From a virus: a stretch of DNA of 64,000 nt. The stretch lies in the IMG/VR virus record IMGVR_UViG_3300027857_000016, positions 1-64,000 of that record; one strand, 5' to 3'. Below the pieces are notes generated by a model. The model ran no database searches. It was not told the DNA's origin and saw only the letters and a list, made by a program, of their open reading frames with translations. Shown here piece after piece: positions 10,153-29,384 of this stretch. A program made the translations under genes and the position numbers. Every line of letters starts with the position of its first letter. The stretch's first letter is position 1.

Positions 10153-10153
10153 T

Positions 10154-10747
10154 ATGGCTGGAACAACCCCTCGCCGTGACGGTGGTGATACTCCTGGTGG
10201 TGATTGGATACGCAGACAACCAGAACTCAGCTCAAATCGTGGCTATGACCTGGAAGATATCGACTATGTTCACACGCGCATGTACTATTGGCACCAATAT
10301 TTACATGGTGAACTGATGATTATCGAGGAGAAGCAGTTCAATAGGGATGCAACCAAGGCGCAGAAGGATACCTTTGGGATTGTGAATCAGGCATTGACGA
10401 ATTCCTTTGCCGATCCTAAGTTTCGGGTCAAGCGGAAGTTTCCAGGACGGACGAATACCTATACCTACTTCGGCTATCACCTTGTCCAATACGAAAAGAC
10501 TTCACCTCTTGATGGCGAGATTCGTATCGATTATACAGTAGTCACACCACAGGAGTACTTGTTGTTCCTTCAGTTTGATAGGGCCTTCCTGGCAGAGCGA
10601 CTTCACTTTGACCCATTGACGGTCCCTATCCATGAACAATTTCATCTGGACCGTTTAAAACGCAAGTCACGCAAAAGCGTCTATCCTGTCGTCCCTACCC
10701 TGTTTGACCCAACACACCAGCAGTCTCTCTGGGAGCTACCAGGATAA
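10154..10747 (+). CDS. Hypothetical protein, possible PD-(D/E)xK nuclease fold
   Basis: DIDY...MIIEEKQ spacing resembles PD-(D/E)xK; directly after the methyltransferase. Confidence 0.5.
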   Translation: MAGTTPRRDGGDTPGGDWIRRQPELSSNRGYDLEDIDYVHTRMYYWHQYLHGELMIIEEKQFNRDATKAQKDTFGIVNQALTNSFADPKFRVKRKFPGRTNTYTYFGYHLVQYEKTSPLDGEIRIDYTVVTPQEYLLFLQFDRAFLAERLHFDPLTVPIHEQFHLDRLKRKSRKSVYPVVPTLFDPTHQQSLWELPG

Positions 10748-10848
10748 CCGCAGTGGGAGTCGTGACCGCTTCTCTCACCTTCCCACGACTCCCACCTCTT
10801 CCCTCGCCTCCACATACCCCCTCGCCTGGTCCTGCCCACTGTCTCTTT

Positions 10849-11298
10849 TCATGTTGGATTTTTGCCATATCTCTTTGTATAAATCTCTGCTATATGGGTG
10901 AGAGTTTGACCGCATACAAAAATGGCAATAATGATACAAAGGGCAGAAATAAGTCCTGCAATCCAAGAACTATTTGTCACGATTGCCCCTATGCCAATAA
11001 TTGCCGTTATGAGTCCAGCATACTGGAGAAATAGAAATGTTTTGCCTTTTGCTTGAGGGTCAACTTTATATGCTTGTATCTCGTACATAATAAGCGTGTA
11101 GCCTCCCAGACAAGGAAGGGCTATGGCAAATGAGGCGAGGGAAATGAACTGCCATATTGTAAGGTTACTCATTCCCAGTAGTGTTGGTAAAGTGATAATA
11201 ATAAGCGAGGAGAGTATCCCACTTATTTTTGCTGGTAATTCCAGCATAATCTCTCCTGGTTGTTTCTGTTCCATAGTTTCCTTTTCAATCGTTTTCAC
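10849..11298 (-). CDS. Four-TM membrane protein (AT-rich gene)
   Basis: Four hydrophobic segments; GAGG RBS. Confidence 0.7.
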   Translation of the reverse strand: MKTIEKETMEQKQPGEIMLELPAKISGILSSLIIITLPTLLGMSNLTIWQFISLASFAIALPCLGGYTLIMYEIQAYKVDPQAKGKTFLFLQYAGLITAIIGIGAIVTNSSWIAGLISALCIIIAIFVCGQTLTHIAEIYTKRYGKNPT

Positions 11299-11312
11299 TT
11301 CTTTGTCCTCTT

Positions 11313-12071
11313 CTATTGATATGACTCACACCACAATTTTGCAGCAGGGATCACCATACCCTTTGACTTCCAGGGTTTACGGGTTACTGATGCTAACGAA
11401 GTGATATCAACTTCCTTGAAGAAATACGGTGTTCTATATCTTTTAGCGTAGCGATGGTACCCGCCAGCATAACACGCTTCTCCATCGCTGTCATACCAGG
11501 ATGACTCTTCTACATATATTCTGTGCTCATCAAAGCGCACTGGCTGTAATGTTTCACCTTCTACCCAATAATACATCTTTCCAAAGTACATAGCGTGCAA
11601 GTACTTCTCCCATTGCAGAGGGCTGTACTTCTTGGTGTTATATTCCAGCGTCAAGGGACACGGTGAAGTCCATAAGAGAGCGATCCCCTTGTTCGTATAG
11701 GCTCGCGTCCTTCTCTCAATGGTATCTAATGATAAAGTGCTCACCTGTACCTCAATGGCAATAGGAATGTTTCTCAGATAAAAGCTAATATCTGGACGGA
11801 CATCACCTAAAGGTCGCTCTAGTTGCAATTTGGTGATATCAGGATGATGCTGTAACGTCTCATAGATGCCTTGCTTTGCCTCTCTGTGCTTTTCACTTTC
11901 CCCTTCACCATAAACACAATTCGACGGAGGGATGTGGGAGAAATGGTGGATCTTTACTCTCCCCTTCTTGACCAATACACCGCTTTTACACATAGGACAG
12001 GTAAACGGACTATCTTCTTTTATTACTTGGGACGCTAGAACGTCACCGCCTTGGTTGCGAGCACTTAACAT
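11313..12071 (-). CDS. CoiA-family PD-(D/E)xK nuclease-like protein
   Basis: FTCPMC...HHFSH...GESEKH...RPDI...AIEVQVS. Confidence 0.85.
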   Translation of the reverse strand: MLSARNQGGDVLASQVIKEDSPFTCPMCKSGVLVKKGRVKIHHFSHIPPSNCVYGEGESEKHREAKQGIYETLQHHPDITKLQLERPLGDVRPDISFYLRNIPIAIEVQVSTLSLDTIERRTRAYTNKGIALLWTSPCPLTLEYNTKKYSPLQWEKYLHAMYFGKMYYWVEGETLQPVRFDEHRIYVEESSWYDSDGEACYAGGYHRYAKRYRTPYFFKEVDITSLASVTRKPWKSKGMVIPAAKLWCESYQ

Positions 12072-12178
12072 AAGGTACTGTCCTTCTACATCAGTATATG
12101 CCACTATGACGACGCCTATCATACATCATTCGCACTGCGAAGAGAACTCGCTATCCCACAGTTACCATCACTGCCTGC

Positions 12179-13549
12179 TCAACTGCCTTGTGCCATCTCA
12201 ACCACCCCTAACTCCTCCCTCAGTAGGTTAAGATAACAACGAGCAGGATCAAGCCCGCTGCCCTTTTTAATGCGCACGTAGAACAGGCTCTTGTAGAGCG
12301 TATCCGCATCTCTCCCAGCCTGCTCATAGATCCCACACAACTCTCGCTCAATCGCCTCATCACTCATGCTGGTATTCCACTTCGCTCTAAATTGCATCAC
12401 CTGCTCAACGATCATCTCAAACGTCACTGGCGGTCCTTCTGCATCGGCAGGATATTGACTTTCAGTTGCTATAGGCTTCATTGTTCTATATGCAGTCATC
12501 TCTCTGGGTGAGTTGCCCTGAGCCTGCTGTGCGTTGAACCTGGCACTAGCCATCCGTGTTGCATAGTGTTTGCAATAGGCTTTGAGTGTCAACTTCTTTG
12601 GGTCTCTCCACCAATAGGTGCCATTCTTCTCGCGCTCATTCCAGAAGTCGGTAAACGCCAGCCTCATCGCTTCTGATGAAGTATCCTGCTCATCAAGCAG
12701 TTGTACGATGGTGGCGTACAACTCGCTATCAACCTCAACCTTGTGTGTGCTTAGTTTGGGATTGGCAAACATTTCTCGCGTCAACTTCTCAAAGCCTGAG
12801 CAGAATGCTTCTACCTGCTCTAGTTGGTCTTCTTTGGCTGGCTCCGGGTTCCCTCCCTTCTCGGAAATAGTCTTTTCTTGAAGAAGTGGAGGAGAGATCT
12901 GTCTTGCAGTCTCTTTTCGTTTTTGATTGGCGCTCTCCTCCTCTTTTTTAGATGGTTCTATGTCATGATTCTTAGGGGATTCTATGTTGCGTTTACTTGA
13001 GGATGGTACGCGTCCCTCTGTAAACGCTACCGATTGATTTGTAATCGGATAGCGTTTACTTGTAAACTGGTCAGATTGATTTGTATATGGGTCTGTTTGT
13101 GAGTGCTTCATATCTACTTGGGGATGCTTTTGATGGGGTTCTCGCTCAGGGAGGAGCTTTATTCTGCGGTTGAGTTCCTGGTAATTCAGTCGATACTTAA
13201 AGGAGTCTCTACCATACATTTTGTACGGTTCTTTGGAAATAAGTCCCTCACCTATCAGCTCGTCAAGACTATCTATGATGACGTTGCGTCCAAACATTCC
13301 ATACATGGCATTGATCCACTGGGGATAACTCATGAAGATAGCTAGATCCTCACCCCTGCCACGCTTGTCATTCGTCCAGCTTTCGAGGATAGCAAGAATA
13401 AATGCTTTGCAGTAGGCAGATGCCTTATTCTTTGACTTGCCTGCTGGTACTTTTTTGTACGTACAGTTGCAACAAATAATGAGATACTCTTCTCGAAATT
13501 CAACGTAGAAGTAGCTGCCACGATGCTCTACAATGCTATTATTACTCAC
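12179..13549 (-). CDS. Putative replication initiator (lambda O-like architecture)
   Basis: N-terminal wHTH-like region (IIDSLDELIGEGLI..YRLNY), repeat-containing linker, C-terminal helical domains. Confidence 0.65.
   Translation of the reverse strand: MSNNSIVEHRGSYFYVEFREEYLIICCNCTYKKVPAGKSKNKASAYCKAFILAILESWTNDKRGRGEDLAIFMSYPQWINAMYGMFGRNVIIDSLDELIGEGLISKEPYKMYGRDSFKYRLNYQELNRRIKLLPEREPHQKHPQVDMKHSQTDPYTNQSDQFTSKRYPITNQSVAFTEGRVPSSSKRNIESPKNHDIEPSKKEEESANQKRKETARQISPPLLQEKTISEKGGNPEPAKEDQLEQVEAFCSGFEKLTREMFANPKLSTHKVEVDSELYATIVQLLDEQDTSSEAMRLAFTDFWNEREKNGTYWWRDPKKLTLKAYCKHYATRMASARFNAQQAQGNSPREMTAYRTMKPIATESQYPADAEGPPVTFEMIVEQVMQFRAKWNTSMSDEAIERELCGIYEQAGRDADTLYKSLFYVRIKKGSGLDPARCYLNLLREELGVVEMAQGS
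12989..13093. repeat. Five degenerate 21-bp tandem repeats (iteron-like origin)
   Basis: Units start at 12989, 13010, 13031, 13052, 13073; GCGTTTACTTG x2 and GATTGATTTGTA x2. Confidence 0.7.
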
Positions 13550-13589
13550 TTACTCACCTCGTCATATATCGATAAAAGTGAGAATACTC

Positions 13590-13697
13590 TTGACGATAGG
13601 TAAGTGGGTATGCTACTCTGCTGGTAGCATACTTCAACCTTTTAAGAGGGCTGGTTCCTATCCGTCGAAAGTTGGGAATCAGCTTTCTCGCTTTTAT
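13590..13697 (+). ncRNA. Putative antisense RNA over the rep leader
   Basis: TTGACG-18-TACTCT promoter, then stem GCTGGTTCC...GGAATCAGC with a GAAA loop and T-rich end; antisense to the rep 5' region. Confidence 0.5.
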
Positions 13698-13843
13698 ACA
13701 CTTCTTCTAACTTCAACAAAAAACGCGCAGGGTTGCTCCATCCTTCCCGGCTTTCCAACCCATATCGATGCAACTCTACGCGTTTGTTCATACTGCGAAT
13801 TGTTCTCCTCATCATACGGAGATTCCACTCCGCTGTCTAGTGG

Positions 13844-14191
13844 TTATGCCAGTATGCTCTCCTGTTGCTCTAAGTCGTGAATGTGGGAACAGTATCCACA
13901 GACCTTCGCCTCGTAGCATGAGCACCTATACTGCTGCTCTTTGTTTGACCACATTTGAATGTAGCTCCACCCTGGAAACTTCTGCGCAGTTGCCAAGTGG
14001 ACCATAACACTTCCCTGCAGGCGGATCTCTACATTGCGGATATGTTCTCCAGTAAGCGCGTAGAAATAGGCTGCAGGAAGGATAACGCCATATGGGAATG
14101 GCAACGAGATGCTATTCCCAGTAAGGATCTGGTGATGGACCAGCAGAACTCGTTGCGAGCTAACTGGGACCCGACCAAGAAAGGTATCCAT
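13844..14191 (-). CDS. Hypothetical protein with Cys cluster (SWIM-like)
   Basis: YRCSC...CGYCSH; GGAGG RBS. Confidence 0.55.
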   Translation of the reverse strand: MDTFLGRVPVSSQRVLLVHHQILTGNSISLPFPYGVILPAAYFYALTGEHIRNVEIRLQGSVMVHLATAQKFPGWSYIQMWSNKEQQYRCSCYEAKVCGYCSHIHDLEQQESILA

Positions 14192-14200
14192 ATCTCCTCC

Positions 14201-14419
14201 CTAGAATCCGTCAGGTGAGAACTCATCAACATACGTGGCGCGTTGATGTGCTTCTTGCTCAAGTGGTGTGAGCGCATTCCATGAGAGCATGAGGAATATG
14301 CCATTGCGATAGGTAGGGAACAGCAGCGAGTCCTCAATGTGCTGTTGGAGGTCTCTGTCAATAATGCGCTCAAGGGAGGTCGTTTGGTTGGCTGGTAGTT
14401 GCGTGGTTGAAATGGACAT
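14201..14419 (-). CDS. Hypothetical protein
   Basis: AAGGA RBS; first gene after the leftward promoter. Confidence 0.55.
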   Translation of the reverse strand: MSISTTQLPANQTTSLERIIDRDLQQHIEDSLLFPTYRNGIFLMLSWNALTPLEQEAHQRATYVDEFSPDGF

Positions 14420-14524
14420 GGTAGAATCCTTTCGAGGTGTTGCCTCTGGCCTAGTAAACGAGGGGCTTCACCAAATGCTAGAGCGCTTGTCTTCAAAGGC
14501 AGGCGCTTTCTTTTACCTGCCTAT

Positions 14525-14597
14525 ATTATACTCTAAGTTGTCATGAGTTGTCAATGTTAGGTCTATGTTTGACAAAACTTATAATAACTCTGTATAA
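14525..14597. promoter_or_regulatory. Divergent TTGACA/TATAAT promoter pair
   Basis: Consensus -35/-10 boxes on both strands; AGTTGTCA direct repeat. Confidence 0.7.
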
Positions 14598-14641
14598 TGT
14601 GTCTAATGGCTAACACTAAACTGTCACCACGGGAGGGATAC

Positions 14642-14848
14642 ATGAAGAGAGAGTTTCTCAATATTAAGCAGGTACAAGAACTTCTTGGTATTAGTGAACG
14701 TACGGCGTTTCGCTATATCAGGGGTGGAGAGTTAAAAGGTTTCAAGGCTGGCCGCGAGTGGAGGTTTGAACCGTCTGATATTGATGCGTTTATTCAAAAG
14801 CGGCGTGAGCAGGCTGAAGCAGATTTGAAGGACAAGAATGTGGCGTAG
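14642..14848 (+). CDS. Excisionase-like HTH_17 DNA-binding protein
   Basis: FLNIKQVQELLGISERTAFRYIRGGELKGFKAGREWRF. Confidence 0.85.
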   Translation: MKREFLNIKQVQELLGISERTAFRYIRGGELKGFKAGREWRFEPSDIDAFIQKRREQAEADLKDKNVA

Positions 14849-14980
14849 CCCCGCGTGCGTCTCAGTGCATCCCGACAACGCAAGGAAGACGCACGCGACA
14901 AAGCTCTCTCTACAGTATACCGAATAATAGAATTGTACACAAGAAGGGATAGACTTGGTACCCTAAAGGAGAGAGGGAGC

Positions 14981-15229
14981 ATGAAAGCTGTACTGAGAAA
15001 AGAGGACACGCCAAGAGGGAGATGGAGTCTGATGGGAGGCAAGATCAAAATGAGTGCCTTCAATTTCACTCCTGATGCTTTTGAACAAGAGCGAATACAG
15101 AAAGCTACGCGGGGCGATTGGGATGCCATGATCGATCTCGCCTATCGAGATATCCTCTATGATGCGTTGAGAGAGGCGTGGGTACGCGTACCTGAAGAGG
15201 ACTTTGATCGGAGGCGTAGTGGAGTATGA
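14981..15229 (+). CDS. Hypothetical protein
   Basis: GGAG RBS before MKAVLR. Confidence 0.55.
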   Translation: MKAVLRKEDTPRGRWSLMGGKIKMSAFNFTPDAFEQERIQKATRGDWDAMIDLAYRDILYDALREAWVRVPEEDFDRRRSGV

Positions 15230-15489
15230 GTGGGTCAGATTCGCACATTGGAGATAATATTCTGGCGTGGTTTTATCCGAACAAAGAAAGCGTGTATCGT
15301 ATGGACCTGCGAACAGAGGACGGATGGACTGAGGGAGTGCCATTGACCATGAGCAGGAAACTCGCCTTTGCCACATTCGACTTCTTAACACAGACCTGGG
15401 TACAAGAAGTCGTGATGTATCGGGATGACAAAGAAATCAAACGACACGAGCAGGCAAAGGAGGAAATACATGCAAGTGACAATAGTTGA
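15226..15489 (+). CDS. Hypothetical protein
   Basis: ATGA overlap; RBS. Confidence 0.6.
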   Translation: MSGSDSHIGDNILAWFYPNKESVYRMDLRTEDGWTEGVPLTMSRKLAFATFDFLTQTWVQEVVMYRDDKEIKRHEQAKEEIHASDNS

Positions 15490-15763
15490 CCATTTGTCAG
15501 GATGGAGTGACCCATCTGAAATTATGGTGATGGATATGGAGGTCATCCCACGTGAGGGCGAGTATATTCGTCTCACGCTCGGAGAGATACTCGCCTTTCT
15601 CAAGGTGCGATCTGTTGAGTGGCACTTGGACACGCGGGATTATGTGACTTGTGGTGAGCACCGTCACGAGATAGTACTTCGAGTTGCTGGTGCGGATCAG
15701 ACAACCAGTGACTATCTCCAGAACGCGTTGAGAGAGAAGATGAAGCAGAATGAGCAATCGTGA
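15470..15763 (+). CDS. Hypothetical protein
   Basis: AGGAGG RBS before MQVTIV. Confidence 0.6.
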   Translation: MQVTIVDHLSGWSDPSEIMVMDMEVIPREGEYIRLTLGEILAFLKVRSVEWHLDTRDYVTCGEHRHEIVLRVAGADQTTSDYLQNALREKMKQNEQS

Positions 15764-15995
15764 TACCCAGTTCAAGCAGTTCGCTGAGTTGTTGTTTGCT
15801 GAACTGTTGGCCGTTGATGATGGACGAATTGATGTGAGCACCTATAACTTTATGGACAATGAGATGATCAACACCTATCGCGCTATCATTGCTCAACGGG
15901 CTTATGACCTGGCATCCCACGTTGTGACGCAGACGACCCTCACCGCACATGGCGATATGGACAAGATACCAGATATGGGCAAGTGGCCCGAATAG
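15750..15995 (+). CDS. Hypothetical protein
   Basis: Overlapping ORF in the operon. Confidence 0.55.
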   Translation: MSNRDTQFKQFAELLFAELLAVDDGRIDVSTYNFMDNEMINTYRAIIAQRAYDLASHVVTQTTLTAHGDMDKIPDMGKWPE

Positions 15996-16006
15996 GAGGA
16001 ACAGAG

Positions 16007-16429
16007 ATGCAACAAGAACGCATAGACGCCATGTCTGCTCTCATGGTACAAGTCAGAAAAGCACAGCAGGATATTGGTGAAGTCCTGGTGGCCTCTCTTG
16101 CAGATGCCGCGAAAGAATTAGGCAGCGTTGAGGCTCTCGTTCATGGACGCCCTGGCTCCTGGGAAGCCGATATTGTTCGACGGATGGCGCTCGCTGGTCA
16201 CTACGTGAGAGTGACCAACCTGGACGAGAGCGTGGTCCGTGGACTGTCTGTCCTCTTCATCGAAATGGGAGAGGCGCGAGAAGACGGTGGTGATATCCTC
16301 TCTCAGGCAATGGGACAGGCAGTCAATGAGTTGGGTGGACTCAAGGAGTTTGCCGGAGACAGTCAGTGGTATTGGGATCTCGTCAATATCGGGTGCCAGT
16401 ATTCACGCTATCCGTTCCCAGTGAAGTAG
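16007..16429 (+). CDS. Hypothetical protein with internal duplication
   Basis: AGGAGG RBS; DIGEVL..AAKELG and DGGDIL..AVNELG repeats. Confidence 0.65.
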   Translation: MQQERIDAMSALMVQVRKAQQDIGEVLVASLADAAKELGSVEALVHGRPGSWEADIVRRMALAGHYVRVTNLDESVVRGLSVLFIEMGEAREDGGDILSQAMGQAVNELGGLKEFAGDSQWYWDLVNIGCQYSRYPFPVK

Positions 16430-16540
16430 CTCTAGATCCAATATGGTATACTCTCCCATGTGAGAGAATGCATGTCCCTGAAGGAAAGGGAGACAACGCC
16501 CACCAGTCTTGGTGGGCGTTGTTCGCTAGCTATGACTTGT

Positions 16541-16609
16541 AGGGGTAGAGCTATGTAAGGTGACACCCGCTACTTTGCGGCGGGTGTCACCTTACATAGC
16601 TCTACCCCT
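16541..16609. repeat. Perfect 30-bp inverted repeat with 9-nt spacer
   Basis: AGGGGTAGAGCTATGTAAGGTGACACCCGC and its exact reverse complement, between convergent genes; a second 13-bp stem hairpin lies at about 16494-16523. Confidence 0.9.
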
Positions 16610-16616
16610 TGTAATG

Positions 16617-17213
16617 CTAAATGGACGCGCTGCGAGGCATGATATGAAGTTCGTAGTCTGAATGGCATCGTATTCTGTTCACAGGTTTTTTTCTATCAGC
16701 ATACATGATCCATACTGAGTCTCCATTTTGTTTGACGTTTGTGACGAGTCCAACTGGGTCTAGACCCAGGTCTAAGTGATCGCCCTGGATGACCTGATTT
16801 GCATGTACTTTGAGTGGTTCTATGTAACTAACCGCTTCTAAAGAGAAGTTAATGGGAAGCAATATTTCCTGTTTTCGATGAGAAGTACCTCGTGCTTGAT
16901 TCGCCCTGTCTTTGGTGGCTTGCGATAGTGGCATATATTGGATATTTGTTAAGAGAATATTTTGCTGAGTATATGCATGAATGTAGTACCTTTCCCTTGT
17001 TTTTGCTTTCTCTTTGCCTTCTACAATCTCAATGATGTTCATTTTGGGCAGCAAATTTTCGGATTGGATCTCACTTATTCTTGTGCTTTTTACTTCATTT
17101 GTATCTTTTACTGTCAGGTGTTGCATCATTCTCCCATTGGGATGGTTTGTGATTCCAATGTAAAAGGTCTGGTCTGTTCGAGGGTCAATGAGTTCGTAGA
17201 CGAAATAGAGCAT
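16617..17213 (-). CDS. GIY-YIG nuclease
   Basis: FVYELIDP...FYIGIT..RMMQH...RERYYI...LLTN; own TTGATT-17-TATAGT promoter. Confidence 0.85.
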   Translation of the reverse strand: MLYFVYELIDPRTDQTFYIGITNHPNGRMMQHLTVKDTNEVKSTRISEIQSENLLPKMNIIEIVEGKEKAKTRERYYIHAYTQQNILLTNIQYMPLSQATKDRANQARGTSHRKQEILLPINFSLEAVSYIEPLKVHANQVIQGDHLDLGLDPVGLVTNVKQNGDSVWIMYADRKKPVNRIRCHSDYELHIMPRSASI

Positions 17214-17329
17214 ATTCCTCTCCTTGTGGGTAATGATATATAACAACGTGTTACATATCATTACTATACGTTATTTGGTTGGTAAAATCAAGTATTATTC
17301 AAAACTAATCGTTTGGCTTAAGCGATAAA

Positions 17330-17360: not shown

Positions 17361-18242
17361 CTAATCTCCAGGATGTCGGTGTTGCTGCCAATTATTGAGG
17401 GATACCGCATATTCTGAATGTTTGAGGAACAACTCTCCGAGAGCACGTTGATATGCTTTCAGAAGTGGGACCGATGAGTTGAGAATATCAAGCCAGTACG
17501 TGTACCGCCTTCTGACAGGTTCTGCATATTGTCTCATGTGCATTCTCACGCTCAACAGAATACCACTTTTGGATTCGGTATAGGCGTAAAGGCGAGGTAT
17601 GATAATTCCCTGTTTGCCTAGTTGCTCTAACTCTTTGCTGACTCCACGTAACAGTATGCCTGTATGTCTACGTCGCAAAGATCGCTTGATACTAGGATCA
17701 CTACCAATGCTTACGATGATGCATCCAGTAGGTTTGCCTGGCTCCAGTTTCTGTACCATCTCTCCAGTGATATCTCTCCCACGAAATTCATTGCGCATAT
17801 AGGCTTCGATACGCTCATCAGTAAGTGCGACGATATGAAGGTAGGCTACTACATCACCATTGGATTTCCTGACTACGTAATGTCCCTTTGGCTCCTTCTC
17901 AAACCATTCTGTGCGTGTTGGTGTCTGGATAGGGCGAAGTGTTGCTGTCTTAAAAAGCTTCTCAGAGACAAGAGTTATTTTTTCGAGGTCACCAATAGTT
18001 GCTGGAGAGAATTGTACATCTGTCTCTTCGGTCAGTTTTCCCTTTTCTTCTCTCACCAACTTCTCTAATTCTTGAATTTTATAATATTTTTGTTTGCGAG
18101 ATTCCGGTCCATGTCGCAGCAAGCGTCCTTGCTTTACGTATTTATAGACCATACCCTCGCTTATATGAAGCCCATGATTGTCTAAAAATTGTATGGCATC
18201 CTTTAGGTTGAGATGTCCTTCAGGTGGTAGTGGTCGTGGCAT
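17361..18242 (-). CDS. MerR-like HTH fused to a GNAT-like domain (candidate repressor)
   Basis: N-terminal LNLKDAI...MVYKYVKQGRL..KYYK; C-terminal FSPATIGDL...VVAYL...SIG..P..RRR..G..L GNAT-like pattern; divergent from a small HTH gene. Confidence 0.65.
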   Translation of the reverse strand: MPRPLPPEGHLNLKDAIQFLDNHGLHISEGMVYKYVKQGRLLRHGPESRKQKYYKIQELEKLVREEKGKLTEETDVQFSPATIGDLEKITLVSEKLFKTATLRPIQTPTRTEWFEKEPKGHYVVRKSNGDVVAYLHIVALTDERIEAYMRNEFRGRDITGEMVQKLEPGKPTGCIIVSIGSDPSIKRSLRRRHTGILLRGVSKELEQLGKQGIIIPRLYAYTESKSGILLSVRMHMRQYAEPVRRRYTYWLDILNSSVPLLKAYQRALGELFLKHSEYAVSLNNWQQHRHPGD

Positions 18243-19193: not shown

Positions 19194-19249
19194 CAGAAAG
19201 ATGTGGGAGGGAATGGGTATGTGTTTTTTGTAGCGTGTTTGATAGGGCA

Positions 19250-19480
19250 ACACCAGACATCTGGTGAGGATTGAAACTAGCGCGGTCACTAGAGCTTGTC
19301 AATCGGGCACTCAGCGGGTTGATAAGCATGTGGTGAGTGAGCCACGAGTCGTTGTAGTGCGGTTTGTCGTTTGAATCTGTCATGCGGATTTTGTAGGTGT
19401 CGTTCTCGTAGTTTTTGCGCTCTGTGCCAGTGTTGTTACCACTGGCACAGAGCTGACCGCAAACGTGAAAGGCCACGTTC
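19250..19480 (+). ncRNA. Putative structured non-coding element
   Basis: GCGGTCA(19282)/TGACCGC(19454) closing pair, perfect 14-bp stem 19419-19453, further stems rich in G-U pairs. Confidence 0.5.
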
Positions 19481-20557: not shown

Positions 20558-20799
20558 GCATTTGGCACTGTCCCTCCTGTACGGGTGTCTGGACGCAGCG
20601 AGGGGTGATCTGGTCTTGTGTGCAAGATCATCCTGAGCAAGAAGACCTGCCAGACTTCTCTACCTGGAGCGGGGAAACACTGAGGTGGCTGTACGACATC
20701 CTGCAGAAGTGGCCGCAGGAGTCTCGCCCTCCGAACGTGCAGGAAACGATCAGGCGGATTGAGCAGGTGATGGATGAGCGGAAGAGAGGGATGTCATGA
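20554..20799 (+). CDS. Hypothetical protein (CxxC)
   Basis: ATGA overlap. Confidence 0.55.
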   Translation: MSIWHCPSCTGVWTQRGVIWSCVQDHPEQEDLPDFSTWSGETLRWLYDILQKWPQESRPPNVQETIRRIEQVMDERKRGMS

Positions 20800-21122
20800 A
20801 TCGGCTTTCTGAAAACTGGGGTGTCTATGGGTGGAAGCTCATTCCTCACCTCATCAGTGATTGTGTCACGGAGATGAACACACGACAGCGGATCAGCATG
20901 GGGGTGCTGATGGTGTTTGTGTATGCTCTGGTTGCAAAAGTGGATTGGGGAGAGTGGCTCCCGCTTATCGGGGTCCTGCTCTGGGTGACGGTGGCATGGA
21001 GTATGTGCCTCATCGGGGAAGGCTGGTCTGTGCATTGTGCCTCTCGCTATGGTGAGTCCGAGTCTCTCACAGACGAGGAAGGTATGGGAACTCTCGATGT
21101 GGAACAGGAGGAGCGGGTGTGA
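20796..21122 (+). CDS. Two-TM membrane protein
   Basis: Two hydrophobic helices; ATGA overlap. Confidence 0.6.
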   Translation: MNRLSENWGVYGWKLIPHLISDCVTEMNTRQRISMGVLMVFVYALVAKVDWGEWLPLIGVLLWVTVAWSMCLIGEGWSVHCASRYGESESLTDEEGMGTLDVEQEERV

Positions 21123-21688
21123 GGAGGAAGCGATGTGTACGGCAGGTTCTGCAGATGTCTCTTTGTCTGGTTGTTCTCTTCTTTGTGATGGTCATGGGTA
21201 CTGCGTGTACGAAGGCAGAGCAACAAACCTTTGGCACCAATGGGGATGGGTTCTATTCAGTGATCGGGGTGCCAACGATCACTGTGTCAAAGATAGATAG
21301 TATTCTCTGTAACGCTGGCAGTCCCGCGTGTGGGACGGGTAAAAGCCTGTATGACCTGGGAGTGCAGTACACCATTAACCCAGTGTACGCACTGGCCTGG
21401 TTTCGTCAGGAGTCAACGTATGGCACCGCTGGCGTAGCACGTTCCACCCATGCGTTGGGCAATATTCAGTGTTCGCATGGATATGCCTGTTATCAAGGGT
21501 TTCGGTCTTACTCGGGTTGGGTGGTAGGCTACGAGGATTGGTACAAACTTATTGCTGGACCGGTTTATGTAGGGTCTGGTCTGACCACGGTGAATGCTAT
21601 TGCACAGAAATATGCTCCATCTGGCAGTAACAACACGATTCAGTATGTCAGGAGTATCGAGTCTTTTGTGGACTCGTGTAGTGCGTAG
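21119..21688 (+). CDS. Secreted glucosaminidase/lysozyme-like peptidoglycan hydrolase
   Basis: Basic N-terminus plus hydrophobic helix; INPVYALAWFRQESTYG (catalytic Glu), GNI, IAQKYAP..N..QYV. Confidence 0.85.
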   Translation: MRRKRCVRQVLQMSLCLVVLFFVMVMGTACTKAEQQTFGTNGDGFYSVIGVPTITVSKIDSILCNAGSPACGTGKSLYDLGVQYTINPVYALAWFRQESTYGTAGVARSTHALGNIQCSHGYACYQGFRSYSGWVVGYEDWYKLIAGPVYVGSGLTTVNAIAQKYAPSGSNNTIQYVRSIESFVDSCSA

Positions 21689-21729
21689 AAACCGTCCTGC
21701 CGGGCTTGACAGGACGGAAAGGAAAAGAT

Positions 21730-22365
21730 ATGAGCGCAGAATTTCGCGGGGCGAAGAAAACCTCGAAACTGGAGGATACCCTGGATGATACGGCTTTCGA
21801 GGCGATCCCTGAACATCCTCCCTATCTCAAGTTTGGCATTGGCGTCTGTGAGTTCCTGTTTGGATTTGTCTGCAATTTCGTGCAGGTGGTGACTTCGACG
21901 ATTGGAATCTTGTCTCTCGTCCTGGGGTCATCCATCGCGCTGGTGGGCCTCACTCATCTCATGGGGGTTTATCCGTATGCTGCTACCATCGCGCTGGTGA
22001 TTGCCTGTGCGATCCAATTGTTCTTGCACAAAAATGCGCAGTCGATGAGCAGCACCTATCAGCGTCTCAGACAGATCCAGCATTTCAATATCAAGAGTGT
22101 GAATGCTCTCTCGGATGTGAAGGAGGCGATCACCGTCAACTCGGTCTACTTTGCACTGGCGCTTGCCGCCGATATCATCAGCGATGCTACCTTTGTCAAT
22201 CTCTATTCACGTAATGCCTATGTCATCGTCGGTTGGATGCTTTTCCTAACCGGATCAAGCACATTGCTCATGTATGATGGCGCGACAAGGGTGTGGGGCG
22301 CGATTGAGGACTTCAAAGACTATGCCGCCTATCATGCGAGGCACGCTGCCAAAGACACGAAATAG
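21730..22365 (+). CDS. Multi-pass membrane protein
   Basis: 4-5 hydrophobic segments. Confidence 0.75.
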   Translation: MSAEFRGAKKTSKLEDTLDDTAFEAIPEHPPYLKFGIGVCEFLFGFVCNFVQVVTSTIGILSLVLGSSIALVGLTHLMGVYPYAATIALVIACAIQLFLHKNAQSMSSTYQRLRQIQHFNIKSVNALSDVKEAITVNSVYFALALAADIISDATFVNLYSRNAYVIVGWMLFLTGSSTLLMYDGATRVWGAIEDFKDYAAYHARHAAKDTK

Positions 22366-22368
22366 GAG

Positions 22369-23997
22369 ATGCTCATGGGCTTTTTATTCCCGTATATCAA
22401 TAGGTTGAGGAACCCAATCTACCTGGTGATCCTGGTGATCCTGGTTGGGTTCCTCGCGTCCCAGTTTTCCGGTTTGGGGATGGACGGTATCACCTATGCA
22501 GTTCTAGGTGCTGCCGCCATTGTTGTGCTCATTCCACTCGTTGGATCTGCGATAAAAACAGGGTGGCACGCCATGATTCATGGGGAGTCTGGTGTGCTTG
22601 ATTTCGCGGTCTCACCAGGCGGATATCGTCGAGCAAGGCAAGCAGAGACAGAAGAGGAGCAGGTCGCGCAATCTATTGTGCAGCCTACTCCCAACCGTCC
22701 ATTTATTATTGATGCTTTGCCATCTGTTGCATCTTCTTCGTCTGTACAGGTTTCTCCGACTGCTGTGGTAAAAGGATCGTCGATGACAGTAGCACCCTAT
22801 CGCGGTGGTCTGCTTGAGACGAAGCTGAACCTTTCTGCTGACTGTAAGCCTCCTATCAACTTTGTGCTTGGTCGGGCGATTCTGGGCGTTGGTCAACGTG
22901 GATCTGGGAAGACGAATCTAGCAGCCCGTCTCATTGAGCAGATTGGGCAGTTCCCTATCCCGATGGCGATCTTCGACTATGAGGAGGACTACCTGACGCT
23001 GCCAGCCCTCTCGAAGGTGAAGCCGAACGTGCTCAACCGTTGCGTCATTGCAGGGAGACCTGATTGGGAGGAAGCGTTCCGCTACCGGGAATACTATTGG
23101 CAGGTGGATACGGAAAATGCTAGAGAAGTGGGCTATGAGATCTTAGAGCAGGGGGTGCAACTCGTTCTAGAGGTTGGGACGTATCTGACCCTGGAAGAGG
23201 GTGCTCGCATCATGACTGAGATCATTCGCGGCATGTTTGACTGGGCCAATGAGCAAGATCCGAAGAAGCGTGTTCCCAATCTGGTCTTGCTCGACGAGGC
23301 ACAGCACTTCCTGCCTCAGAACTCTGGCGTCTCCAATATTCGTGAGGAGGAAGCTGGCGAACTGCTCAAGGCATTCATGGACATCAATGCCCGTGGCCGC
23401 AAGCGTGGATTTACCCCTGCTATCTTCACGCAGCGTATTGCTCAGATCCGCAAAGAGGTGATCGCTGGATCTGAGATCTACTTCCTCATGCGCCAGACGA
23501 TCAGCAATGACCTGCAGGTCTATGAGGGACTATTGGGCAAGGATGACAACAATAAGCAGCGTCTGGACCGGAGGACAGTGCAGGCATTTGAGAAAGGTGA
23601 TGGGATTGTCTTTGAGGGTGGAGAGATGTTCATCACGCACTTCGATGAGCGTGAGTCGGAACATCGCGGGAACACACCGAAGCTGGAGCAGGCCCTCAAC
23701 CGTTACGGGGACAGACCATTGGCACAGCGGTCCAGAAACAAATCACCTCTTGTACCAGATGAAGAGATCGAGGATGAGGATGAACAGGAACTGGAGTGCA
23801 TGCAGTTGGGGAAAGATGTTTTTATCACGATGGACCAGTTTGCTTTAGCGGTCAAGTTGCGCAAAGAAGGTCTCTCAAAGGGGTATCGAGATTTAATGCC
23901 TGTGTTTGAGTTATCAGAGCATCACGCCAAAGAGTTGAACAAGCGTATCCGAGAAGTGTTGGGTCAGGAACCTGAACAAGAGGGCAATGGAGTCTGA
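22369..23997 (+). CDS. Membrane-anchored HerA/FtsK-superfamily ATPase (TraB-like architecture)
   Basis: Two N-terminal TMs; Walker A GQRGSGKT; Walker B LVLLDEAQ; RGRKRG arginine finger; TQR; short C-terminal HTH-like segment. Confidence 0.88.
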   Translation: MLMGFLFPYINRLRNPIYLVILVILVGFLASQFSGLGMDGITYAVLGAAAIVVLIPLVGSAIKTGWHAMIHGESGVLDFAVSPGGYRRARQAETEEEQVAQSIVQPTPNRPFIIDALPSVASSSSVQVSPTAVVKGSSMTVAPYRGGLLETKLNLSADCKPPINFVLGRAILGVGQRGSGKTNLAARLIEQIGQFPIPMAIFDYEEDYLTLPALSKVKPNVLNRCVIAGRPDWEEAFRYREYYWQVDTENAREVGYEILEQGVQLVLEVGTYLTLEEGARIMTEIIRGMFDWANEQDPKKRVPNLVLLDEAQHFLPQNSGVSNIREEEAGELLKAFMDINARGRKRGFTPAIFTQRIAQIRKEVIAGSEIYFLMRQTISNDLQVYEGLLGKDDNNKQRLDRRTVQAFEKGDGIVFEGGEMFITHFDERESEHRGNTPKLEQALNRYGDRPLAQRSRNKSPLVPDEEIEDEDEQELECMQLGKDVFITMDQFALAVKLRKEGLSKGYRDLMPVFELSEHHAKELNKRIREVLGQEPEQEGNGV

Positions 23998-24099
23998 GAG
24001 AGTGAGTGAGAGACTGCGAGGGGACCCCATTTTGTGCTCGGAGAGACTTCTCTCACTCACTCTCGCGCCATTTTCTCTCACTCTCTCAGCACTCTCGCG
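23995..24099. repeat. GAGAG/CTCTC repeat locus (clt-like)
   Basis: Perfect 16-bp inverted repeat 23998-24013/24049-24064; direct repeats TTCTCTCACTC x2 and CACTCTCGCG x2. Confidence 0.8.
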
Positions 24100-24131
24100 G
24101 TACATTAGTCTTTCGAAAGGACTTGTAGGTT

Positions 24132-25463
24132 ATGTCATCAAAGCAGAAAATCATCACGCAGGGACTCTTCTGGGGTGCATTTGGCATCTTTCTCGCGGTG
24201 TCTATCCCGCATATTGCCTGGGTGGTGTTCCAATATACGCCACAGGATGCGTCCGTTTGGGTCTCGGTGGGGTATGGGGCGCTCTCACTGGGCTACGCGA
24301 TAGCCATTGATGGCATCATGGCATGGCTGACCCATGCGCAGAGCAGCCAGAAGCGGGCTTTTTCGCGTGATGCCATCTTCACCTGGATCTTTATCTTCGC
24401 GCTTGTGGCAATGAGTTGGTATCTCAACTGGGTCTATAACGTGGCTCATGACCCATCACACCAGGGCGGAGAGGTCTGGAAGTTCGCTCTCACCAGCCAG
24501 TGGGGGGTTCTCCCTGAAATCACCGTTGGCACGTTTACGCCGTGGCTCCTAGCGGCGCTCCCGGTCTTCACGATTGCCTACGTGGGAGTCCTCAATAATG
24601 TTAACAATATGAAGGAAGAGGCAGCAAAAAGTGTGGAGGATCTGGAGAATGAGGCAAAGGTTGCGGTGCGTCGTGCAACGGCGATGAAGCAGATCAAAGA
24701 TGCGAGATCAAGTGATGATACTGTCGCAAAAGTTGTTGATAATGCTTTCGGTATTGCGGGAAAATTCAAGGAAAATTTGAGGGAGTTTCGTGGCACAAAA
24801 CGAGATCCTGAGATGGAGAAGCAGACAAAGGTTTTACAGATGTTCCGTGATGTTCCCTCCCTTTTAGAACCACAAAACGAAGAGAATGGTGTGGCAACCA
24901 TCAAGGAAATGTTGCGGATAAAGCGAGACGCCGAAGCTCGTTTCTGGTGGCTAAAAGCAAAGACACTTCTTGAACAGAAACAGGCAGAAGAGCAGGAAGA
25001 AAACGTGGCACATTCTGTGGATGATTCGCTGGAAGAAACTTCCACAGGTGAGACCCACAAAAAGACGACGCAGCAGGATGAAGAGAGCACTTCTCACACT
25101 GAAAACAATGCGTCTAAAACATCCACAGCAACACCTGCTTCTACCCGCGCTACAACGCCACTGAGCATCACTATTCAAGAGGCAGCAGCGCAACTCGAAC
25201 TCAGCGAGGCATACATTCGTGAATTGCGCAATAATGGGAAACTTCGCAGTCCAGCACGTAGTAAAAAAATGATCCTGATCAGTAGTCTGAAAACCTATCA
25301 AGAAAGTCGTGCGAAAAAGGAACCAGTAACCGACAAAACAGCATCTATAAAATCGGAACAAAACCACCAACAGAATGGACAAAGTGGTGGGAAGAATGGC
25401 AACGGAAGTGGGTACGATAAGGAGACAGAATCTGTTATGAATTTGCCAATGTATACGGCTTAA
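24132..25463 (+). CDS. SpdB2/DUF2637-like protein: 4 TM, coiled coil, C-terminal HTH
   Basis: VSIPHI..., YAIAIDG, SWYLNW TM motifs; C-terminal ITIQEAAAQLELSEAYIRELRNNGKL. Confidence 0.7.
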   Translation: MSSKQKIITQGLFWGAFGIFLAVSIPHIAWVVFQYTPQDASVWVSVGYGALSLGYAIAIDGIMAWLTHAQSSQKRAFSRDAIFTWIFIFALVAMSWYLNWVYNVAHDPSHQGGEVWKFALTSQWGVLPEITVGTFTPWLLAALPVFTIAYVGVLNNVNNMKEEAAKSVEDLENEAKVAVRRATAMKQIKDARSSDDTVAKVVDNAFGIAGKFKENLREFRGTKRDPEMEKQTKVLQMFRDVPSLLEPQNEENGVATIKEMLRIKRDAEARFWWLKAKTLLEQKQAEEQEENVAHSVDDSLEETSTGETHKKTTQQDEESTSHTENNASKTSTATPASTRATTPLSITIQEAAAQLELSEAYIRELRNNGKLRSPARSKKMILISSLKTYQESRAKKEPVTDKTASIKSEQNHQQNGQSGGKNGNGSGYDKETESVMNLPMYTA

Positions 25464-25480
25464 AGAAAGGGAGTTTTATC

Positions 25481-25681
25481 GTGAGTTCTACCCAATTTCG
25501 TAGTATGTGTGAACTTAGTCTGGTGGCGATTATCATGTCTGGTTTTATCGGGGCATTCCCGCTGTTCAATGGGACCATCATCCCATTTTTGATTGTGTGT
25601 GGACAGGGGATCATCTTCATGGTATGTATCCTAGTCACTGTTCGAGTATGGAAACAACAGAAAAGGAGGCAAGAAGCATGA
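25481..25681 (+). CDS. Small two-TM protein
   Basis: 66 aa, two hydrophobic helices, basic C-terminus; GGGAG RBS. Confidence 0.65.
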   Translation: MSSTQFRSMCELSLVAIIMSGFIGAFPLFNGTIIPFLIVCGQGIIFMVCILVTVRVWKQQKRRQEA

Positions 25682-25717
25682 ACTGGAAAATGGAGCAGTA
25701 GAAACAACTCCTCAGCT

Positions 25718-25759
25718 AGAAAGGCACCTCTCAAAACTCCCTTTGAGAGGTGCCTTTCT
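25718..25759 (+). terminator. 18-bp perfect stem closing the operon
   Basis: AGAAAGGCACCTCTCAAA / TTTGAGAGGTGCCTTTCT. Confidence 0.75.
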
Positions 25760-27408: not shown

Positions 27409-27981
27409 GTGGTAGGTGTGGCGGAGAAGTATGGGCAAGTGCAACTGGAAGAAACGCCTAAATCAGCAGCAGCATTCTATGAGTACTGTTTGCTCGGTGC
27501 TGATCGCAGTTTAGCAAAACTTGCTCAAAAACTCGGTAAGTCAACGGCATATATACGGTGTCTGGAAACGTGGTCATCGCACAATAGGTGGCAGGAACGG
27601 GTCAGAGAATATGACGCTGAGCAGGCAAGATTTCAAGGAGAAGCCATCCTCCAGGAGCGTACAAAAATCCTCAAATTTCGTTATGCGCTTATGCACAAGC
27701 GCATTGAACAACTTGACCGCATAGCACAAAAACTCCTCGATTATGCCGAAGACGAAGAAAAAGTATGGCTCCCCGATGTGAAAGCTATTGGCAATGGACC
27801 AGGCGCTGAACGTGTTGATCTAGTGCAGTTCAACGATGCCCTCTTCCGAGAAATCCGTGCGCACTTTGCCGATATCGCATCTGAACTGGGTGAGCGTGTC
27901 AAAAAGACCGATACCACCGTTACGGTAATCCCAAAGACCTACCTTGATCTTGATCCTGATGAGGACGGGAGCGAAGAGTGA
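27409..27981 (+). CDS. terS: Terminase small subunit (probable)
   Basis: ETPKS..AFYEY..LG..RSL..LA...WS...W.ER...YD HTH pattern; GTGA-coupled to TerL. Confidence 0.7.
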   Translation: MVGVAEKYGQVQLEETPKSAAAFYEYCLLGADRSLAKLAQKLGKSTAYIRCLETWSSHNRWQERVREYDAEQARFQGEAILQERTKILKFRYALMHKRIEQLDRIAQKLLDYAEDEEKVWLPDVKAIGNGPGAERVDLVQFNDALFREIRAHFADIASELGERVKKTDTTVTVIPKTYLDLDPDEDGSEE

Positions 27982-29384
27982 TGGGAGCAGTGATGAGCGC
28001 TCCGAAAGAGCAACGACCCTACAAGCGATACGGTGCTGCATTGACTGCATGGAAATCTCGACGGCGTGAGCTGGTGCTTTCTGGTCCTGCTGGAACTGGC
28101 AAGAGTCGCGCCTGTTTAGAGAAACTTCACTTCTGCGCTGACAAATATGCTGGCATGCGTGGGTTGATCGTGCGTAAAACACGGACCAGTGTCACGCAAA
28201 CAGCAATGGTGACATTCGAGCAGAAAGTGTTACCTGAAGGGTGGCTTGGAAACATTATCCACTTTCGCTCAAGCGAGCAAGAGTATCGATATCCCAACGG
28301 CTCCATTATTGCCGTTGGCGGGCTAGATAAATCATCCAAGATCATGAGTTCCGAGTGGGACATGATCTATGTACAAGAGGCAACAGAACTAAGCGAGGAT
28401 GGATGGGAATCGCTGACCACACGCTTACGTAATAATGTGATGCCTTATCAACAACTTCTTGCTGACTGTAACCCTGGACCTCCTACCCACTGGCTCAAAC
28501 TTCGCGCTGATCGTGGTCTTGTGTTGATGTTGGAGTCCAGACACGAGGATAATCCCTCCGTTACTCCTGAGTATATTGCTACCCTGGATGCACTCACAGG
28601 TGTGCGCTATCTCCGTTTACGCAAAGGAATATGGGCAGCGGCTGAGGGATTGGTATATGAGGAGTGGAATCCCGCCATACATAAAGTCTCACGCTCGAAG
28701 CTGGTGGAATGGCAGATCCTTACATCGACAGGGGCGATGAATCGTAATGGAGCAAGGCGGGTTATTGCTGGTGTGGACTGGGGATGGAAGAATCCTGGAA
28801 CCATCCTCGTTTTTGCTCTAGATGCTGATGATCGTTTGTTTCTCATCCACGAGGTGTATCGAACACAGCGTACAGATGACTGGTGGACAGAGCAAGCGGT
28901 GCAACTCAAGAAGATGTATGGCATTAGTGAGTTCATCTGTGATCCTGCTATGCCTGCCTATATCGCCAAGTTCAAGCTCGCAGGCTTAAATGCTATCGAG
29001 GCGAACAATGAGATCGCCGCTGGTGTCAACGATATGCGCGAATGTCTCCAGATAGCCAGCGATGGACGACCGCGTTTTTATGTCTACGAATATGCGCTGA
29101 GAGATCGTGATGAGACACGTGTTGAGAAGTATCTCCCGTTTTGTTTCGATGGGGAAATCTTGGAGTATGTGTGGCCGAAAGATCAGGAGGGGAAACCCGT
29201 TAAGGAATTACCAGTAGCGGTGAACAATCATGCGTTAGACGCCTCTCGCTACGTATGCCGGTGGTTGAGTAAAGACACGCCCTCATCAGCACACCATCTT
29301 TTGGCAATAAATCGTCGTGTTGAGTTGGACAGGAGAAGAAGGGTACAACCTATCCAGTCAGTGCAAAGAGGATGGCCGCAATGA
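27978..29384 (+). CDS. terL: Terminase large subunit (PBSX-like)
   Basis: Walker A GPAGTGKS, Walker B IYVQEA, CNP, RNase H-like GVDWG and NHALDASRY. Confidence 0.95.
   Translation: MMGAVMSAPKEQRPYKRYGAALTAWKSRRRELVLSGPAGTGKSRACLEKLHFCADKYAGMRGLIVRKTRTSVTQTAMVTFEQKVLPEGWLGNIIHFRSSEQEYRYPNGSIIAVGGLDKSSKIMSSEWDMIYVQEATELSEDGWESLTTRLRNNVMPYQQLLADCNPGPPTHWLKLRADRGLVLMLESRHEDNPSVTPEYIATLDALTGVRYLRLRKGIWAAAEGLVYEEWNPAIHKVSRSKLVEWQILTSTGAMNRNGARRVIAGVDWGWKNPGTILVFALDADDRLFLIHEVYRTQRTDDWWTEQAVQLKKMYGISEFICDPAMPAYIAKFKLAGLNAIEANNEIAAGVNDMRECLQIASDGRPRFYVYEYALRDRDETRVEKYLPFCFDGEILEYVWPKDQEGKPVKELPVAVNNHALDASRYVCRWLSKDTPSSAHHLLAINRRVELDRRRRVQPIQSVQRGWPQ

Follow-up and report, generated by a model that had tools for sequence, protein, structure and literature searches.

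The closest described systems to the one considered here are the TraB/clt/Spd transfer systems of Streptomyces plasmids. Their motor is a single membrane-anchored ring ATPase with a C-terminal DNA-reading domain (TraB, TraA and Tra of pSVH1, pWTY27 and pIJ101, respectively), the clt locus contains short direct and inverted repeats that overlap or follow the 3' end of the motor gene, and small and polytopic Spd membrane proteins, with wall interaction, complete the set in a mycelial host. In pWTY27, TraA has two transmembrane (TM) helices and binds the 7-bp direct repeats and the inverted repeats of a clt made of 16 bp inside traA and the next 159 bp, and TraB of pSVH1 reads 8-bp repeats through a winged helix-turn-helix (wHTH) at its C-terminus (PMC3583192). 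Homologs of SpdB2 have already been noted on some actinophages (PMC4447253, PMC3583192). Motors of the HerA kind are described too. TdtA of ICEth1, the donor pump of Thermus thermophilus transjugation, is a HerA-like hexameric ATPase on a mobile element, and it is proposed to push double-stranded DNA (dsDNA) out of the donor without a type IV secretion system (T4SS) (PMC5365140); the archaeal CedB works with the polytopic CedA and the two-TM proteins CedA1 and CedA2 (PMC9905601). Here we describe a block of genes in a window of 64 kb, the first part of the 80-kb linear IMG/VR virus record IMGVR_UViG_3300027857_000016 (G000, estimated completeness about half). We assign a probability of about 0.5 to the reading that this block encodes an apparatus in the membrane for site-specific dsDNA translocation, functionally convergent with TraB/clt/Spd, which would transfer DNA between compartments or cells, and we place more confidence in the general claim of a DNA pump in the membrane that has a loading site of its own. 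The apparatus would be carried by phages of mycelial Ktedonobacteria, and probably by other elements of these bacteria as well.

The block consists of six co-directional and tightly packed open reading frames (ORFs) at 20796-25759 (coding part 20796-25681), whose products are all membrane or exported proteins. Its features are the following:

20796-21122, + strand: small ORF of 108 residues in which two hydrophobic stretches were recognised by eye; the module may begin with this gene
21119-21688, + strand: peptidoglycan hydrolase candidate of 189 residues, glucosaminidase-like, exported or lipid-anchored, from sub-threshold profile matches
21706-22365, + strand: polytopic membrane protein of 219 residues that constantly accompanies the ATPase; it may be a subunit of a channel or a stator
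22369-23997, + strand: membrane-anchored HerA-class ring ATPase of 542 residues, from Walker motifs and fold model
23995-24105, no strand: inverted-repeat element that begins at the ATPase stop codon; candidate clt-like loading site
24132-25463, + strand: membrane-anchored candidate DNA-binding protein of 443 residues with four TM helices, a coiled coil, a disordered linker and a helix-turn-helix (HTH)
25481-25681, + strand: hydrophobic small protein of 66 residues with two TM helices, judged by eye from the sequence
25720-25759, no strand: closing stem-loop of about 17-18 bp; probably a terminator, with no clear T run

A first-pass annotation of the window had proposed a TraB/clt/Spd-like transfer module at this place, and all the parts that it named were recovered at the same positions, including the 18-bp closing hairpin. 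The gene of the 219-residue protein (tm219) and the ATPase gene are separated by 3 nucleotides (nt), and 134 nt lie between the latter and the gene of the 443-residue protein.

The alignment of 20 relatives of the ATPase showed an invariant Walker A motif (G175-K181), an invariant Walker B motif (D309/E310) and an invariant RGRKRG...TQR motif. The AlphaFold model (overall pLDDT 74) suggests a TM hairpin at about 13-80, a disordered linker at 82-149, a confident core at 150-433, an acidic linker and a C-terminal unit. The anchor, two hydrophobic helices within 13-80, is kept in the close members of this family (A1), and three longer variants (P0024, P0025 and P0028) differ at the N-terminus. 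The protein has a HerA-type ATPase core and, in the manner of type IV coupling proteins (T4CPs), combines two N-terminal TM helices with an ATPase of the superfamily, and the FtsK/SpoIIIE-type motor domain (PF01580) was not found in it. In the fold comparison, HerA proteins scored 24-25.5 (root-mean-square deviation about 2.6-3.1, about 245 residues), VirB4 21.5, TrwB 21 and STIV2 B204 18.9; the lowest rows were EssC/EccC (18), TcpA (17.6) and FtsK (17.1). As judged from the model, the ATPase is on the HerA/VirB4/coupling-protein side of the FtsK-HerA superfamily, and the first-pass view of a HerA-like rather than canonical TraB motor is borne out. As for TraB itself, no kinship was detected past the shared superfamily, and the hhalign comparison with pIJ101 Tra was insignificant.

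Profile searches gave a similar picture. DUF87 was found in 15 of the 20 ATPase members and TrwB_AAD_bind in two (E 0.049), with no matches to T4SS-DNA_transf or TraG-D_C. Compared with the T4CPs (TrwB/VirD4, TcpA), the module ATPase has no all-alpha domain match and carries an HTH-like domain at its C-terminus. Searches of phages and plasmids returned just generic DUF87 or HerA-like matches, single-protein scans of genome contigs and viral contigs found nothing, and a profile scan of genome contigs reached only distant Methanolobus ATPases. The C-terminal unit (477-531) is modelled as strand-strand-three helices, with the helices at 488-531 and a pLDDT of about 90, and appears HTH-like. Weak, sub-threshold Pfam matches of HTH type were obtained in relatives, namely Sigma70_r4 in two members, FtsK_gamma in one (E 0.005), HTH_50 and HTH_psq; the Pfam scan gives no match positions, and these matches are presumed to be C-terminal. 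A PDB sequence search with the tail gave noise only.

The nearest solved folds to the ATPase are defence HerA proteins, from the Sir2-HerA, DUF4297-HerA and TdpAB systems, and the PADLOC/NCBIfam models for HerA and mad8 also matched it weakly (E 1e-9 to 1e-11). Phages often carry defence genes, and the module could on these grounds be a device for anti-phage defence or abortive infection, with an ATPase of HerA type as the sensor and, coupled to it, membrane effectors that would depolarise the cell. We consider this quite improbable. The PADLOC, NCBIfam and fold likeness is limited to the generic ATPase core, and the matches lie far under the family cut-offs. The HAS barrel at the N-terminus of HerA (HerA-NurA, Sir2-HerA, DUF4297-HerA, TdpAB) is replaced by the TM hairpin and the disordered linker; in fact, residues 1-149 are modelled as helices and disordered linker, with no beta barrel. 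In contrast to HerA proteins of repair and defence, the module ATPase would be membrane-bound, with an HTH-like C-terminal domain and a candidate cognate repeat site, and has no nuclease or NADase partner. A HerA grouped with a nuclease or Sir2 was the arrangement that the first-pass annotation had named as speaking against its idea, and no such neighbour is present. When the other four genes were scanned with PADLOC, no nuclease, Sir2 or DUF4297 model matched and no such Pfam domains were seen; a weak capH match concerned the HTH of the 443-residue protein (E 0.022). Moreover, known HerA defence systems feature neither a wall hydrolase nor a self-specific repeat site that co-varies with the tail of the motor.

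A soluble HerA-like family from sediment metagenomes, about 29% identical to the ATPase, was set aside, having no TM helices and a different conserved neighbourhood. At its sites (L030, L032, L065, L070, L078 and L084, at about 8000-16800 in each) the gene order is strongly conserved: a protein of about 490-540 residues, the ATPase, then proteins of about 173, 354 and 1660 residues. This neighbourhood is an uncharacterised system, separate from the phage module.

The repeat locus that the first-pass annotation had placed at the ATPase stop codon turned out to be a conserved element. In the window it contains a perfect 16-bp inverted repeat (23998-24013 and 24049-24064, arms GAGAGTGAGTGAGAGA and TCTCTCACTCACTCTC) with a 35-nt spacer, and a third arm copy at 24074-24089. 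The 9-mer GAGTGAGAG has three copies in the 64-kb window, all inside the element (0.8 expected; three are reached in 5 of 100 shuffles). All 11 distinct loci have an equivalent element, which starts at the ATPase stop codon or up to about 30 nt past it. The arms are long and built from short tandem units, which differ between loci:

L014, L017 and L024: arm unit (GTGTGTGC)n
L021: arm unit (GTGCGTGCG)n
L020: arm unit (GAGCGAGA)2
L022: arm unit (GTGTTTC)n
L025: arm unit (GTCT)n
L023: arm unit of the GGCGTCGG type
L018: arm unit GGTGGGC

The spacers are 25-37 nt long and in most loci carry a near-palindromic motif (TGAGCTCA, AAGCTCA or AAGCTTAG), often together with a small GC hairpin. The spacers of the window, L022 and L025 have only degenerate versions of this motif; that of the window reads GTGCTCGG in place of the TGAGCTCA of its relatives. 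Since a count of perfect inverted repeats misses imperfect or longer-spaced elements, folding was used instead. The main stems comprise 226 Watson-Crick and 21 G-U pairs, the two strands fold about equally well, and base pairing is preserved across loci despite sequence change. The RNA folds are stable (z-scores from -1.2 to -6), with the exception of L005 (-0.7), and no Rfam family was found for the element. At L005, three tandem 11-bp repeats (CACAAAACTTC, 12219-12258) lie before the gene of a four-TM protein and after a separate 19-bp hairpin (12119-12162); they may be an operator or a second binding site.

The repeat unit of the element tracks the type of the ATPase C-terminal domain, not the tree of the motor core. 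GAG-type arms go with the tails of the window, L005 and L020, GT/GC-type arms with those of L014, L017, L024 and, more distantly, L021, and GTC-type arms with those of L023 and L025; L022 and L018 each have a type of their own. The core tree conflicts with this grouping in three places. The core of L024 is sister to those of L023 and L025 (85% and 79% identity, support 100/100), whereas its tail is 87% identical to the L014 tail and its arms are (GTGTGTGC)n, as in L014 and L017. The L018 core groups with L005 and L020 (support 100/99), whereas its tail and GGTGGGC arms are its own. Finally, the window core is nearest to L014 and L017 (72%), whereas it has a tail and GAG-type arms like those of L005 and L020. 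The unit follows the tail and not the motor, and this suggests that tail and site form a specificity cassette, like the TraB wHTH and clt. Judged from these sequences, the two would move jointly and independently of the motor, as expected of a DNA-binding domain and its target. Adjacent short repeats specific to each motor are found at the sequence level, and the TraB-wHTH/clt logic put forward in the first-pass annotation appears to hold to this extent, the repeat unit behind the ATPase gene following the type of the C-terminal domain.

Such a site could also belong to a device for membrane tethering or segregation, in which two anchored DNA-binding proteins fix the replicating genome of the phage or plasmid to the membrane or septum and partition it into daughter compartments or spores without any transfer to new cells, on the model of the FtsK/SpoIIIE-type pumps that clear DNA from closing septa. 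The module encodes two membrane-anchored proteins with a confirmed or modelled HTH, the repeat site is centromere-like, and in L014 the element is directly followed by a gene for a ParM/Alp-like actin. The 80 kb of the record yielded no tyrosine integrase, which allows a plasmid-like prophage state, and the host class sporulates. Constant association with a peptidoglycan hydrolase would be unexpected for internal segregation, and we hold this explanation to be unlikely. It overlaps with the reading as a transfer apparatus, since both involve the same activity, the pumping of DNA across a septum.

The survey of gene neighbourhoods that the first-pass annotation had suggested as a check found the homologs to be syntenic. 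In each of the 12 close loci with sequence ahead of the ATPase gene, tm219 is the gene immediately upstream. The module is present in a second, different phage, complete and of 109 kb with direct terminal repeats (L005/G001), at about 93-99 kb. On other contigs, the tm219-ATPase pair adjoins genes for PolA, DUF1643, a C5 methylase or a ParM/Alp-like actin, and the PolA/ParM-like contigs have no virion genes in their sequenced part. The pair is fixed, while the position of the hydrolase varies among the loci. In L014, three repeat copies of about 30-40 nt (GTACGGTACGAGAACAGCACGAGAACAGCAC..., 8513-8710) lie just upstream of the ParM/Alp-like actin gene (8707-9804); they resemble a parC-type centromere and thus suggest a plasmid-like element.

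The place of the module in the phage genomes bears on another alternative, a device for genome entry or exclusion. An early membrane motor would bind a site on its own DNA and pull in the rest of a large genome, in the way of the second-step transfer of phage T5, which depends on pre-early proteins, or conversely block or expel superinfecting DNA. In the window the module has an early or middle operon position, between a regulatory switch and the terminase genes, and in the complete phage G001 it lies near the genome end. Site-specific recognition of self DNA, as the sequences suggest it, would suit an import motor as well as an export motor, and DNA import is what the archaeal Ced system does (PMC9905601). 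On the other side, it is not obvious why DNA pulled in through an ejection channel that has already formed should require a wall hydrolase and several membrane partners, and the module also occurs beside the PolA and ParM-like genes on contigs without virion genes in the sequenced part. We know of no phage import system with such a motor, and we give this possibility a low probability.

The membrane partners have few relatives of any kind. The alignment of the 219-residue protein (family A4) suggests four TM helices, with conserved polar residues in them (N57, Q60, Q104, H108, D156, D160, S185, T186 and D191). The family has no Pfam, PDB or PHROG relative, the PDB profile search gave noise only, and just 54 representatives were found at E <= 1e-3 among 1.84 billion proteins. 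A complex prediction for this protein and the TM hairpin of the ATPase scored 0.01, which counts neither for nor against binding. In the 443-residue protein (family A2) the model places four TM helices, a coiled coil and a disordered linker, and an HTH_17 domain lies at 347-393. HTH_17 was matched in 12 of 24 members (E 1e-4 in the window protein, 8.6e-7 at best); this HTH is excisionase/MerR-like, and the N-terminal domain carries the motifs VSIPHIAW, AIAIDG, MSWYLNW..AHDPS and TP..ALPVF. Matches of the model in BFVD cover the HTH alone, the four-TM domain having none at E <= 0.001, and tblastn of this domain against isolated phages gave no match.

Proteins of the same layout are found downstream of the ATPase in other loci. 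The L024 protein has four TM helices and a C-terminal MarR-type wHTH, that of L005 has four TM helices with no C-terminal HTH found, and that of L018 is multi-TM with a C-terminal part that matches the A2 profile (E 5e-6); none of them is a sequence homolog of the N-terminal domain of the 443-residue protein. The 66-residue protein had no family match; in L005, a two-TM protein of 58 residues holds the same position after the four-TM protein. The first-pass annotation had compared the 443-residue protein with SpdB2/DUF2637, and this did not hold up: there is no detectable kinship, nor is there for the 219-residue protein. In fact, PF10935 (DUF2637) matched none of 24 members of the first family and none of 26 of the second at E <= 1, nor anything in the six-frame translation of the record at E <= 10; hhalign of the two families to pIJ101 SpdB gave probabilities of 1.0% and 0.4%. 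An Atlas lead to a DUF2637-bearing cluster scored only 0.77. The PF10935 model seems insensitive, because phiC31, a reported carrier of SpdB2, also gives no match.

The 189-residue protein has an N-terminal hydrophobic or lipobox-like leader and matches Glucosaminidase (PF01832, E 1.8e-4) and an NCBIfam peptidoglycan hydrolase (E 3.5e-5), in both cases under the cut-off. Phage L005 encodes a homolog 39% identical to it, 2.2 kb downstream of the ATPase. Each of the six element types has a membrane-anchored peptidoglycan hydrolase within 5 kb of the ATPase, glucosaminidase-like in the window and L005 and a TM-anchored SLT transglycosylase in L014, L017, L018 and L024. This swap to another hydrolase family, a non-orthologous replacement, points to a functional need for wall cutting.

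A hydrolase followed by membrane proteins might also suggest accessory lysis or egress, with holin-like membrane proteins and the inverted repeat as a terminator or attenuator between two halves of an operon. The exported hydrolase and the membrane proteins do follow in this order, upstream of terS and terL (27409-29384), and some well-studied phages place their lysis genes there. The RNA folds of the element are stable, and the other terminator-like hairpin of the phage, at the end of the block, also lacks a T run. This closing hairpin received no call in a T-run terminator scan, a simple promoter/terminator scan stayed at background level, and Rfam returned only generic miRNA hairpin models for it (E 0.4-0.56). 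A separate and conventional endolysin candidate is found after the tail genes (Amidase_2, E 6e-19, G000 78611-79567), which makes the module hydrolase a second enzyme and not the sole lysin. For this reason a lysis cassette was rejected as the main explanation of the block. In addition, it would be unusual for terminators to have arms of tandem units and 25-37-nt spacers that carry a conserved motif, and the hydrolase changes position while the tm219-ATPase pair stays fixed. We know of no lysis system with a 540-residue ring ATPase bearing a DNA-binding tail, and lysis seems to us very unlikely. The 318-residue Amidase_2 protein and a 130-residue ORF that follows it, at the record end (G000 78611-79956, L094 18611-19956), are probably the true lysis cassette.

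Named homologs of the ATPase and of the 443-residue protein come from Dictyobacter formicarum and from metagenome-assembled genomes of Ktedonobacteraceae or Chloroflexota, and the one named distant relative of the 219-residue protein falls within the same group. Ktedonobacteria are filamentous, spore-forming soil bacteria of Gram-positive type (PMC9689679). From these homologs the host lineage is likely to be filamentous Ktedonobacteria (Chloroflexota), in line with the filamentous host expected by the first-pass annotation.

With these data, the block may be pictured as a transfer apparatus as follows. The 542-residue protein would assemble into a hexameric ring of HerA type, which its N-terminal TM hairpin would keep at the cytoplasmic face of the membrane. 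Its C-terminal HTH-like domains would recognise the short repeat units of the element at its own stop codon, which would be the loading site, and the ring would pump the dsDNA of the element that carries it through a conduit formed by the always-adjacent 219-residue polytopic protein. The membrane-anchored peptidoglycan hydrolase would open the wall or the septal cross-wall, and the 443-residue protein, as a second membrane-anchored DNA-binding protein, would assist together with the small two-TM proteins. Most likely, the apparatus would serve to move the phage genome between compartments of the hypha or between adjacent cells without the help of virions. Tentatively, and at somewhat less than even odds, we suggest a second route of spread besides the virion: a HerA-class pump with a private site would move dsDNA through septa or into neighbouring hyphae, as an independent invention of the TraB/clt/Spd kind, and the exchangeable tail and site would set which DNA is moved.

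Several points weigh against this reading. The membrane partners have no detected homology to TraB, SpdB2/DUF2637, VirB6 or any known channel protein. The 443-residue family does not occur in every related locus, and the L014-type contig showed no four-TM protein with an HTH. The HTH fold of the ATPase tail comes from the model and from sub-threshold Pfam matches in few relatives. Adjacency alone favours the joint transfer of tail and site in a single recombination event, so that their co-variation is weaker evidence of recognition than it would otherwise be. The element may act as an RNA hairpin (terminator or attenuator), the closing terminator being likewise a long hairpin without a T run. 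Finally, the host has been assigned from named homologs only.

Compared with the Streptomyces systems, the module shares the single membrane-anchored ring ATPase, here with a candidate DNA-reading domain at its C-terminus, the repeats at the 3' end of the motor gene, the small and polytopic membrane proteins with a putative link to the wall, and a likely mycelial host. As there, no T4SS or tyrosine integrase was found: the VirB4, VirB6 and VirB8 set was not seen among the module genes, and relaxases were not searched for systematically across the record. Unlike there, the motor is of the HerA class and not of FtsK/SpoIIIE type, and the membrane parts have no detectable homology. TdtA can be compared by description: TM segments, a C-terminal HTH and a cognate repeat site are unmentioned in PMC5365140, and TdtA differs from the module in having a NurA-like nuclease partner and in mobilising DNA from anywhere in the genome (PMC5365140). 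The Ced/Ted systems, also by description, resemble the module in their VirB4/HerA-like ATPase, their polytopic (VirB6-like) and small two-TM proteins and the passage of DNA across the membrane without a relaxase. Ced is, however, chromosomal, imports DNA, probably single-stranded, and has a CedA1 pilus, with no specific cis site or peptidoglycan hydrolase described (PMC9905601). By analogy, TdtA and CedB may be counted as precedents for HerA-class motors in DNA transfer. New here are the conserved module with the co-variation of its cis element and tail, and the use of a HerA/VirB4-class motor with unrelated membrane partners. We found no publication that describes such a module in Chloroflexota or their phages.

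As regards the rest of the record, the DUF932 gene reported in the first-pass annotation was confirmed, and so were, from the virion set that it named, the two terminase subunits TerS and TerL and a tail tape-measure protein; the record also has an HNH element and the Amidase_2 gene. At the head of the block, the stop of the 108-residue ORF overlaps the start of the hydrolase gene, and the family scan of this ORF gave no match above noise. Upstream of the module lie genes for a GIY-YIG nuclease (16617-17261, - strand) and a 293-residue HTH protein (17361-18242, - strand). The pair is common to L005 (5089-6557, - strand), in the same order and at 27-33% identity, L005 being otherwise different, and the regulatory region may travel along with the module. 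In the operon upstream of the module, a structured gap without coding sequence contains a weak match to Rfam CRISPR-DR9 (19247-19277, + strand; 27 bits, E 0.011, under the gathering score). A CoiA-like competence protein is encoded at 11313-12122 (- strand; CoiA_N E 7e-13, CoiA nuclease-like domain E 1e-13), a curious gene beside a putative transfer module, given that in Thermus transjugation the pump of the donor is linked to the competence machinery of the recipient. Further upstream, a 445-residue protein fuses ParB N-terminal and HTH domains to an N6/N4 DNA methylase domain (8815-10152, + strand), and a complete OmpR-type response regulator is found at 3153-3854 (+ strand; receiver domain E 4e-29, Trans_reg_C E 4e-20), which in a virus record is either host-derived cargo or flanking host DNA.

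If the reading as a transfer apparatus is true, conjugation-like pumping of dsDNA would not be peculiar to actinomycetes and would recur in mobile elements of filamentous bacteria, the strategy having been reinvented with another motor class in true phages. This would blur the line between phages and conjugative elements and would offer an explanation of how a phage colonises a whole mycelium. Three families without annotation (the 219-residue partner, the four-TM HTH protein and the motor) gain a concrete functional hypothesis, and the tail and the repeat arms make a directly testable pair for protein-DNA specificity, with natural swap variants. To our knowledge, Ktedonobacteria are currently without genetic tools, and such a transfer system might help to supply one.

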